A DNA stretch of 30,570 bases from a virus (taxonomy: Duplodnaviria; Heunggongvirae; Uroviricota; Caudoviricetes): the IMG/VR virus record IMGVR_UViG_2617270980_000010; one strand, 5' to 3'. Made by a program: the position numbers and the translations under genes. Under the pieces are notes generated by a model. The model was not told the origin of the DNA. It worked only from the letters and a program-made list of their open reading frames with translations, and did no database searches. The number at the start of each line of letters is the position of its first letter. Positions within the stretch are counted from its first letter, which is position 1. Below, one piece after another: positions 20,379 through 22,273 of the stretch.

Positions 20379-20498
20379 CATTTGTGACATTTACATCTGC
20401 ATAAGTTTTGTGGCATTTTGTAGACACTGCTGATAGTGCCAGTAACTACACTATTAATGATTCTTGACCCCTCCCCTGCCTGAATGGTACGTGAGGTG

Positions 20499-20678
20499 TC
20501 AAGAGGGTGATTGTATTATATGCGCAATCATGCAATCAGCTATATTAATAACATGCTCACACATTTCAATCTCGTTTTCCCATTTTTTCTCTGTATTTAA
20601 TATTTCAAATGCTTTTGGGAGAATGCATTTGATGATTTCGATTTTAACTTCAGTGAAGTTTAGTTCATCTTCTTTCAT
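20499..20678 (-). CDS. small acidic hypothetical protein, coupled downstream partner of the 404-aa cargo gene
   Basis: Hand translation of the minus strand: MKEDELNFTEVKIEIIKCILPKAFEILNTEKKWENEIEMCEHVINIADCMIAHIIQSPS (59 aa). Its ATG lies 4 nt after the stop of the 404-aa gene. A 59-codon open frame in AT-rich DNA is unlikely by chance. Confidence 0.5.
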   Translation of the reverse strand: MKEDELNFTEVKIEIIKCILPKAFEILNTEKKWENEIEMCEHVINIADCMIAHIIQSPS

Positions 20679-20682
20679 AGCA

Positions 20683-21897
20683 TCACTTGAAAATATTTCT
20701 AATCGGGTTTACCAGCATTTTTAAAAGCACCCTAGGCACTCGATATAAAATGCTGTTGCTGAGAATTGTCTGGTAGCTATGTAATTTATTCTTTACTATA
20801 TTAACCTCCCATCTTGTGTCAGATGCATCTATCCATCGATTGATAAAACTATTATTAATGCCGAAAGAGTGTTCTTGAGATGCGCATAGCATCACCGGGT
20901 TTATTTTTCTTATTAATAATGAATGATATTTCATTCCGGATGAATACTCTGATCTTATAATGTTAAATTTGAGCTTGTGAAAAAGATCAGATAGATCATT
21001 GATATTTTCTTTACTTACGCAACTGCCAACCCTTTCAAGGATGCCACAATTACCTTTGTATAACCCATAAAATTTTTTCATATAAGAGTCAAAGCCTTCT
21101 TTACTCAATGCATTTTTTAACTCATGGGTTACATTTATAGATTTATAGCCATATTTTTCTTTATTGGCATAAATGAAATGATGATAAATTTGTATTTCAA
21201 ATAAATTTGTTTTTTTGTTTTTTTCTAAGAGCATAACCATTTCATAAGGTGTGCCAATAAAGTCACATAAATCCTTCACTATTTTTTTATCGTAAAACCA
21301 TATAAAGTTTTCAAGAAAAAAAGCATCATCATCTTCCTTAAGTAAGAAATTTGAGTTTTGAATTACATTCTTTGTGAATGTTGCATTAAACTTTCTTTCA
21401 CTGAGTTTTGAGTAAGAAATAAACGGATTCCTAAAATACTCATCGAAAAGCTTGGATAGTTCGTAATCTCTGATCATCATACTTTCAGAGTCAACAATTA
21501 ATGATTTACTCTCATTTATATATAAAATAGTGTACAGTTTTTTTAAAGTCTGATAGGAAAAACGCCCCATTGTTTCGAGAAGCTGTGATGTGGATTTTCT
21601 TATGTCGAATCTGGAAAGAATCATTTCAAAAGAAAGTACTCTAACATCAATGTTTTTATAATTCGAGGCAATTTCCTCTAAGTCAAAGACATCGTCTTCT
21701 TCAACTGTGAGATAAATAGGGATTTTTTCCCCTTTAGAGAACTTGTTCAAGCTAGATAAATATTTTTTTATAAAGTCAAAATGACCACGGTAAGTCGGGG
21801 TAATAAGAGCATAATCATGTGTTTTCATTGCGTACTCATCAAATATTGTACCTAAAGCCGCGCTACCTTCTAAGTTTAAACGCCGTACGATGAACAT
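20683..21897 (-). CDS. AT-rich cargo protein of unknown function in the Z/fun slot (candidate anti-phage defence or lysogenic-conversion gene)
   Basis: 404-aa uninterrupted ORF on the strand opposite the flanking late operons, in visibly AT-rich sequence, with lysine/asparagine-rich composition. No catalytic motif recognised with confidence. Alternative start at the second Met (21828). Confidence 0.7.
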   Translation of the reverse strand: MFIVRRLNLEGSAALGTIFDEYAMKTHDYALITPTYRGHFDFIKKYLSSLNKFSKGEKIPIYLTVEEDDVFDLEEIASNYKNIDVRVLSFEMILSRFDIRKSTSQLLETMGRFSYQTLKKLYTILYINESKSLIVDSESMMIRDYELSKLFDEYFRNPFISYSKLSERKFNATFTKNVIQNSNFLLKEDDDAFFLENFIWFYDKKIVKDLCDFIGTPYEMVMLLEKNKKTNLFEIQIYHHFIYANKEKYGYKSINVTHELKNALSKEGFDSYMKKFYGLYKGNCGILERVGSCVSKENINDLSDLFHKLKFNIIRSEYSSGMKYHSLLIRKINPVMLCASQEHSFGINNSFINRWIDASDTRWEVNIVKNKLHSYQTILSNSILYRVPRVLLKMLVNPIRNIFK

Positions 21898-22148
21898 AAC
21901 GGATCGATACTGCGCGGTTAGATAGAAAAATCACAACTAAAAGGAATAGGTAAACGTCGGACGCTATACTTTCTACTTTAGCTTATCGCTATTTAGATTG
22001 ATTATCAATGACAATCGCGCTCTATAAATGCAACACCACCGCCACAGGCATCAATGTAAACAGTCGTGACACCTTCCGGACATGTCCACAAACCTGATGC
22101 TGTAAACGTAGATAACCCACGAATTCCCAAACCAACCTTTGAAAGAAT

Positions 22149-22171
22149 GGCGGGCTGATGCCCGTCTTTTT
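22149..22171 (+). terminator. rho-independent terminator upstream of the FI late promoter
   Basis: GGCGGGC-TGAT-GCCCGTC hairpin followed by TTTTT on the plus strand. Confidence 0.5.
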
Positions 22172-22273
22172 ATGATTTATTTATGTGTCATGCGCTACCC
22201 ATCGCCGACAAATAGCCCCTCACCAGACCAGCCAGGACAATAACACTCGCCCACTGACCACGGAGTTAACCGG
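22172..22273 (+). promoter_or_regulatory. putative late promoter region P_F (Ogr-dependent) for FI-FII-E-T-U-D
   Basis: Positional inference from P2 organisation; contains a TGTC...GACA partial dyad but no clean TGT-N12-ACA element was confirmed. Confidence 0.35.

Follow-up and report, generated by a model that had tools for sequence, protein, structure and literature searches.

The 30,570-nucleotide stretch of viral DNA analyzed here (IMG/VR record IMGVR_UViG_2617270980_000010; hereafter the window) has the backbone of a 186/P2-like Escherichia coli prophage, with a 99.8% match to E. coli strain 600029. Between its tail fibre and tail sheath genes we identify a Mu-G-like invertible segment of 2.5 kb (19623..22153) in which AT-rich DNA containing the gene of a GT-A-fold nucleotide-sugar transferase has taken the place of most of the second of two fibre tips. 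We lean toward the reading that this gene is a captured O-antigen-type transferase moron that alters the surface glycan of the lysogen and masks the receptor of the fibre with which it is linked.

The invertible tail-fibre segment

A first-pass annotation of the window, made from the letters alone, had proposed horizontally acquired cargo of low guanine-cytosine (GC) content between the fibre and sheath genes, and the base composition bears this out. The sharp drop in GC described there is present: GC falls to 27-35% over about 20400-22000, compared with 54-62% in the flanks and 54% over the whole window. The AT-rich stretch (about 20385-22030, 32% GC, ~1.65 kb) includes the transferase gene, whose 404-codon open reading frame (ORF) has 31% GC. 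The features placed in the annotated interval, 20380 to 22273, are real, and the ORF list confirms the positions of the ORF of 404 amino acids (aa) and of a 59-aa ORF that begins 4 nt after its stop. The extent of the interval was wrong, however, as it cuts through the larger unit 19623..22153.

This larger unit has 123-nt inverted repeats at both ends. The left repeat (IR-L, 19623..19745) lies inside the fibre gene, at the end of 99% homology to eight related loci (L002-L009), and is 84% complementary to the right repeat (IR-R, 22031..22153), with which it pairs. Within the repeats are 26-bp crossover sites, which we take to resemble gix/hix/cix sites. The left site (19629..19654, plus strand), placed by junction alignment, reads TTCTCGAATACC-TT-GGTTTGGGAATT, and the right site (22122..22147) reads TTCTTTCAAAGG-TT-GGTTTGGGAATT on the minus strand. 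The outer half-sites of the window are degenerate, ATACC and AAAGG, as opposed to AAACC in the invertase-linked relatives.

Read from left to right, the parts of the cassette are a crossover site, a Gly-rich fibre tip and its 55-aa partner. The 59-aa ORF, the transferase gene and the stub of a second tip follow on the opposite strand, and the other crossover site comes last. The fibre gene (18896..20206, plus strand, 436 aa; Pfam Phage_tail_fib, E=4e-62, and Gly_rich_2) has a constant N-terminal part up to about 19640 and a C-terminal Gly-rich tip from 19643, inside the segment. In agreement with this division, the homology of other phages' segments to the window begins at 19627-19630, within the fibre gene, and homology of other 186-like prophages to the window starts at 22125-22149. 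The 55-aa ORF (20211..20378, plus strand) matches phrog_14370 (E=2e-15), a family of unknown function; it is 100% conserved across all cassette copies and probably serves as a fibre partner or chaperone in place of the normal tfa.

On the other side of the segment, the ORF list and an alignment to the fibre gene identify a truncated alternative fibre arm (22005..22130, minus strand) that reads GIRGLSTFTASGLWTCPEGVTTVYIDACGGG, then VAFIERDCH and a stop. This second arm contains no complete fibre tip: it is cut short at 41 codons, and the transferase gene comes next. Because comparators carry two-tip segments in the equivalent slots, we conclude that the AT-rich DNA took the place of most of the second fibre tip together with its small partner gene. 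The first-pass annotation had credited the transferase gene with its own upstream region. The AT-rich leader of the gene is indeed present (21898..22030, minus strand), but the region upstream also includes the 41-codon fibre-gene fragment.

The segment truly inverts, because one of the eight related loci, L008, holds the reciprocal junctions of L002. Junction alignment showed these to be exact reciprocal recombinants, with the exchange located within AAACC-TT-GGTTTGGGAATT. In the flipped L008 locus the alternative arm is joined to the constant part of the fibre, giving a truncated fibre of 186 aa followed, after a gap of 107 nt, by the transferase on the same strand. Both orientations thus exist in nature, with 1 of the about 17 loci with informative flanks flipped, and all P2-like copies are in the fibre-ON orientation. 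A tblastn search for a serine invertase gave no match in the window or in L001, and Hin/Gin-type inversion also requires a cis enhancer, which normally lies within the invertase gene. The window cassette is probably frozen in the fibre-ON orientation, because it has no invertase, its outer half-sites are degenerate and every P2-like copy is fibre-ON.

Inversion could be the point of the arrangement. The transferase would then be off in the fibre-ON state and, once flipped, would be expressed late from the tail operon, either modifying the envelope of the lysing cell or taking a virion-associated or receptor role. The geometry mirrors the Sv-U and U'-Sv' configurations of Mu, and the order observed in L008 is what such a switch would produce. 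We nevertheless consider a switch of this kind unlikely. The transferase is out of frame with the fibre stub, from which it is separated by a stop and a gap of 107-176 nt, and its homologues are no structural proteins but enzymes of biosynthesis in the cytoplasm. Flipped loci are rare, and a flipped phage would be without its receptor-binding tip. Moreover, the P2-like copies have kept the gene despite having no invertase and being fixed in fibre-ON.

The transferase and its family

The transferase gene (20683..21897, minus strand) has a maximal ORF of 404 aa, with a likely product of 381 aa from 21828. The true start is probably M24, because it is the start chosen by PGAP (WP_187439716.1), residues 1-23 have a predicted local distance difference test (pLDDT) score below 50 and the family consensus begins there. 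An AlphaFold2 model built on a 75-sequence alignment (pLDDT 90.7; predicted template modelling score, pTM, 0.85) shows a single Rossmann-like alpha/beta/alpha domain with N-terminal nucleotide-binding strands. A Foldseek search with a predicted model had been suggested in the first-pass annotation; carried out against PDB and BFVD, it matched GT-A transferases only (GT8 xyloside xylosyltransferase, glycogenin, GT6 enzymes and TarS/TarP). A sequence search of PDB with the single protein found nothing, and the sole match of the family profile aligned the N terminus (ITPTY...) to the VIVPTYN start of TarS.

This alignment upholds one half of an earlier hint at a GT-A enzyme, which had paired the N-terminal motif with an acidic EEDD segment as a possible DxD. 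The EEDD segment is not conserved. Instead, D136-S137-E138, a DxE variant placed by secondary structure directly after strand 131-134, is invariant in the 75 sequences, and the window transferase keeps all 17 family-invariant columns, this triplet included. As modeled, the protein is a GT-A-fold transferase with an intact active-site signature, and it is predicted to be active.

Pfam families were of limited help in naming it. DUF6492 (PF20102) matched residues 47-151 with 20.7 bits (E=2.5e-4), under the gathering cut-off of 22.9 bits. It is the only Pfam family that recurs in the homologues, in 14 of 75 at E<=0.01 (best E=7.6e-6), and it was also detected in two long family members, with a score above threshold in one (26.8 bits) and below it in the other (19.3 bits). 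DUF6492 is itself a family of unknown function, for which a literature search found no paper. A match to N6_N4_Mtase (residues 107-303; 22.4 bits, cut-off 26.7) was rejected as spurious, given the GT-A fold and its occurrence in 1 of the 75 homologues. The Stealth family of hexose-1-phosphate transferases includes GNPTAB, Mycobacterium tuberculosis CpsY and meningococcal capsule polymerases. The window transferase has a fold of the Stealth catalytic-domain type, yet Stealth_CR1 to Stealth_CR4 were found neither in it (Pfam to E<=1) nor in the 75 family members (to E<=0.01). It is therefore a GT-A-fold enzyme that is Stealth-like in structure without being a member of Stealth.

A homology search returned 86 relatives of the transferase. 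The family is small, because an exhaustive profile search recovered only 469 representative clusters among 1.84 billion proteins. The four homologue contexts that we analyzed are all polysaccharide assembly loci. In Kluyvera ascorbata, the homologue (P0002, 60% identity) lies in an O-antigen-type locus adjoining gnd that contains wzm/wzt, GT2, WavE and TagD- and TagF-like genes. In Salmonella enterica subsp. diarizonae, the homologue (P0005, 45% identity) has wzm/wzt, GT2, WavE and an AT3 acyltransferase as neighbors within an island. Of the two metagenomic homologues, P0084 (32% identity) shares its polysaccharide locus with WavE, a nucleotidyltransferase, GT2, an ABC transporter and AT3, and P0040 (36% identity) with WavE, a nucleotidyltransferase, LicD and GLF. 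The homologue genes in such O-antigen and polysaccharide loci have about 30% GC, like the phage copy, so that the AT-richness of the latter is the normal signature of an O-antigen-type gene. Similarity to the Kluyvera gene at the DNA level is 67% and restricted to the coding region. Judged by these relatives, the transferase is a polysaccharide-assembly enzyme by descent, from bacterial O-antigen-type gene clusters. Enzymes of its family would normally take part in ABC-transporter-dependent assembly of O-antigen or capsule. That its homologues occupy conserved, non-mobile loci of this kind comes close to refuting the first-pass proposal of a defence cassette, to which we return below.

The Salmonella island (L010, 155-9534) is situated near pgtE and also contains a LicC/APH-like gene. 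The protein cluster of its homologue has 341 members, and one allele is present on about 900 contigs.

The recurrent neighbor in these loci is WavE (Pfam PF07507). Members of the family are adjacent to or fused with WavE in ABC-transporter-dependent loci (L010, L014, L020 and L021; P0138, P0142, P0163 and P0173), and a fusion was found in 4 of the 10 long members scanned. This suggests that the transferase family and WavE form an uncharacterized two-module enzyme pair. A literature search found no description of the pairing, a search for WavE gave no functional information, its matches being dominated by the ordinary word "wave", and a paper on the Klebsiella O-antigen does not mention the transferase family.

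GT-A enzymes act on many kinds of acceptor, and in Mu the DNA-modification gene mom adjoins the G segment and gin. The transferase might accordingly be imagined to glycosylate something other than the cell surface, namely phage DNA with hypermodified bases or the fibre protein itself. We judge this very improbable: all four homologue contexts are polysaccharide assembly loci with ABC transporters, and no genes of a base-hypermodification pathway are found nearby.

Spread of the cassette and its likely role

By blastn, the window from 19627/19630 to 22141/22146 is 99.1% identical to loci L002-L009 (n=8), and the homology stops exactly at the outer ends of the repeats. The relatives bearing the cassette are Mu-like prophages and prophages of a third type (Phage_Wedge1/Sheath_initiator) in Yersinia enterocolitica and E. 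coli. In these two types of locus, the transferase is flanked by a serine invertase (182-190 aa, Resolvase and HTH_7) on one side and by the Gly-rich fibre gene and its 55-aa ORF on the other; the invertase adjoins the segment in L002-L009, L024, L025 and L030. The cassette has recently spread by recombination into P2/186-like, Mu-like and third-type myovirus prophages of E. coli, Y. enterocolitica and probably Kluyvera. Scans of IMG/VR with the transferase family profile returned the same P2-like phage only, and scans with the Gly-rich tip returned distant fibres only, with no close transferase-free ancestor carrying the same tip.

Ordinary two-tip segments occupy comparable positions elsewhere. 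One, in E. coli CX21 (L018, NZ_CP081762.1, 2384-5006), lies between gpI and the sheath gene of the same 186-like backbone and comprises a fibre and tfa facing tfa' and a second tip; it has no adjacent invertase. Gin-type fibre cassettes apparently occur in P2/186-like prophages in a form that is either frozen or reliant on an invertase in trans. A further two-tip segment, with a tip and tfa facing tfa' and a second tip, is present in E. coli Res13-Sevr-PER07-33 (L039, 3727-6549); its invertase is 100% identical to that of L024, and both loci lie at the yciI/tonB/ompW chromosomal site. The tips of these two canonical comparators (L018 and L039) differ from that of the window. The transferase-bearing segment is a rare swapped-in allele, because the invertase of L024 and L039 is found in 131 of 5426 complete E. 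coli genomes and the transferase cassette in only 1.

The first-pass annotation had assigned the AT-rich DNA to the P2 Z/fun hotspot, and the gene order of P2 indeed places that slot where the DNA lies, between sheath and fibre genes. As a location this holds; as a description of a free-standing unit it does not, since the DNA travels within the invertible segment and occurs in Mu-like and other prophages too. The slot, the opposite strand of the gene, its AT-richness and its rarity would also suit a dedicated two-gene intracellular anti-phage system, acting by abortive infection or by modification of a component of the incoming phage. We consider such a system improbable. The cassette belongs to the fibre segment and is found outside P2-like phages, and the enzyme is a GT-A transferase with relatives in polysaccharide loci. 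A comparison with defence models, proposed along with the defence role, lent it no support. PADLOC-DB gave 0 families for either the 404-aa or the 59-aa ORF at E<=1, NCBIfam gave no match for either, and PHROG gave two chance-level matches only for the transferase (E 0.15 and 0.18). None of this amounts to evidence of a novel type of defence system.

The proposed second gene fares no better. The 59-codon ORF (20499..20678, minus strand) is doubtful as a gene, and the earlier idea of a coupled two-gene module did not survive comparison with the relatives. Its only match is its own cluster among 5.8 billion protein clusters, with no family match, and an A6-to-A7 homopolymer frameshift shortens it to 37 aa in 8 of 8 Yersinia-type loci (L002-L009), that is, in most copies examined. 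The E. coli-type copies and one record from Kluyvera cryocrescens keep the full reading frame. No similar ORF was found downstream of the homologues in polysaccharide loci L010-L015, which together with its orphan status rules it out as a conserved partner. Its stop codon overlaps a hairpin (20462..20504) between the convergent 55-aa and 59-aa ORFs that has no U-tract. With its stem of 14 bp fully paired, the hairpin of the Yersinia-type copies (L002, 9395-9437) reaches -28.3 kcal/mol (z=-5.8), whereas that of the window, with two mismatches, is weaker (-20.2 kcal/mol, z=-1.9). The transcription unit of the transferase probably has its 3' end here.

In the mechanism that we infer, a GT-A-fold gene would have been captured into the spare arm of a Gin/Hin-type cassette, displacing most of the alternative fibre tip, and its product would be made in the lysogen from a promoter within the cassette. 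With a metal bound by D136 and E138, the enzyme would use a nucleotide sugar as donor to add a sugar or sugar-1-phosphate, at the cytoplasmic face of the membrane, to a lipid-linked or core glycan, which could be lipopolysaccharide (LPS), O-antigen or enterobacterial common antigen. The resulting change in the cell surface would amount to lysogenic conversion. Adsorption would be affected as the receptor of the co-inherited Gly-rich fibre became masked, leading to superinfection exclusion or self-immunity. Receptor masking is the most economical role, because the gene is always inherited together with one particular fibre tip.

Several points weigh against this proposal. The leader of the gene contains one candidate sigma-70 promoter (TTTATA-16-GATAAT, 22028..22001), which scored at chance level in promoter scans, so that expression in the lysogen is a presumption, and DNA of 31% GC could be silenced by H-NS in E. 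coli. WavE and the other usual pathway partners are absent from the phage, and without them the enzyme may find no suitable acceptor in E. coli. The transferase copies differ by just 3 synonymous and 2 nonsynonymous substitutions, too few to inform on selection, and their intactness may reflect recent spread instead. The cassette is, moreover, rare among complete E. coli genomes. A few Y. enterocolitica copies (P0097/P0098, P0095 and P0093) are annotated as split or shortened, which may represent either decay or merely contig ends.

Taken together, such points would fit a gene that is a silent passenger, acquired when illegitimate recombination put a piece of an O-antigen locus into the dispensable arm, and that has since hitch-hiked with a successful tip, without a function of its own. 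Near-identical copies need no selection to remain intact, the 59-aa ORF is already decaying through its frameshift, some Yersinia transferase copies are split, the usual partner WavE is missing and no convincing promoter was found. We regard this explanation as possible, though doubtful. Dozens of contigs, from three phage types and no fewer than two genera (E. coli and Yersinia), have the transferase ORF intact, every family-invariant residue is kept, and what was acquired is more than a fragment, comprising the whole gene along with its leader and a hairpin downstream of it. Receptor masking by the transferase in the lysogen is the reading that we retain.

An elaboration of receptor masking, which we put forward only tentatively, is that the cassette is a mobile "key plus lock-changer", with a fibre tip and a receptor-disguising enzyme between invertase sites. 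Where an invertase is present, inversion would toggle the population between an infective-fibre state and one with the transferase driven by the late tail operon. The enzyme would then be the first member to be characterized of a family that pairs with WavE in O-antigen and capsule assembly and has a fold closest to that of the Stealth sugar-phosphate transferases.

The remaining features of the locus belong to the phage backbone. The tail sheath gene (22274..23452, plus strand) flanks the AT-rich region on the other side from the fibre gene. Ahead of it, outside the cassette, is a late-promoter region (22207..22273, plus strand) that is 95.5% identical to phage 186 14116-14182, annotated "promoter". 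A terminator scan placed a terminator-like hairpin just outside the segment (22149..22166, plus strand; -15.4 kcal/mol, z=-3.9). An Rfam scan of 19500-22400 gave no match.

Comparison with known systems

The segment shares its plan with the G segment of Mu, the C segment of P1 and the P segment of e14. As in these, inverted repeats lie at the junction between the constant and variable parts of the fibre, the crossover sites have an AAACC-NN-GGTTT core, a tip and a small partner face a second arm on the opposite strand, and reciprocal junctions occur in a natural isolate. An adjacent serine invertase is a further shared feature, but of the Mu-like and third-type relatives, not of the window. 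By contrast with the known segments, the second arm of the window is a 41-codon stub with 1.65 kb of AT-rich transferase DNA, there is no invertase, the outer half-sites are degenerate and the repeats, at 123 nt, are far longer than the 26-bp site.

As a prophage-borne enzyme related to surface-polysaccharide biosynthesis, the transferase resembles the seroconversion enzymes GtrABC, Oac and TarP. Gtr systems differ in their three-component make-up and in acting on the periplasmic side. The GT-A enzyme TarP, from a prophage of Staphylococcus aureus, is cytoplasmic and remodels wall teichoic acid; Foldseek matched it with E about 1e-6. The sequence identity is only 10-13%, however, and TarP belongs to another family and has another acceptor, wall teichoic acid. 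None of TarP, GtrABC and Oac is known to lie inside an invertible fibre segment.

The single gene described here offers, in E. coli, an entry point to an uncharacterized transferase family of about 470 sequence clusters. If receptor masking is true, host range and self-immunity would travel together in this cassette as one portable module, and invertible fibre regions would be worth scanning for morons and defence-like genes that hotspot-based searches have missed. If its two halves do act as key and lock-changer, both could be gained in one step by any myovirus whose fibre stem and crossover site are compatible.

Host-range switching by invertible fibre segments is textbook knowledge, as is lysogenic conversion by prophage enzymes that modify glycans. 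In this cassette the two are joined in one piece of DNA: an O-antigen-type transferase stands in place of one of the fibre tips, and the combination has passed with hardly any change among three lineages of phage and two or more genera of enterobacteria. A precedent is the P2-like xenorhabdicin locus of Xenorhabdus, where glycosyltransferase genes lie in an invertible, invertase-less fibre region and a role in LPS-based self-resistance has been proposed (bioRxiv 10.1101/2025.04.19.648921). The two have in common a P2-like element, transferase genes among invertible fibre fragments and the absence of an invertase from the locus; the xenorhabdicin genes are annotated as glycosyl- and mannosyltransferases, and it is by annotation that we liken them to the gene described here. 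Xenorhabdicin differs in being a tailocin, not a phage, and in carrying a 4.6-kb fragment with nine genes, and its self-resistance role is itself a proposal (bioRxiv 10.1101/2025.04.19.648921).

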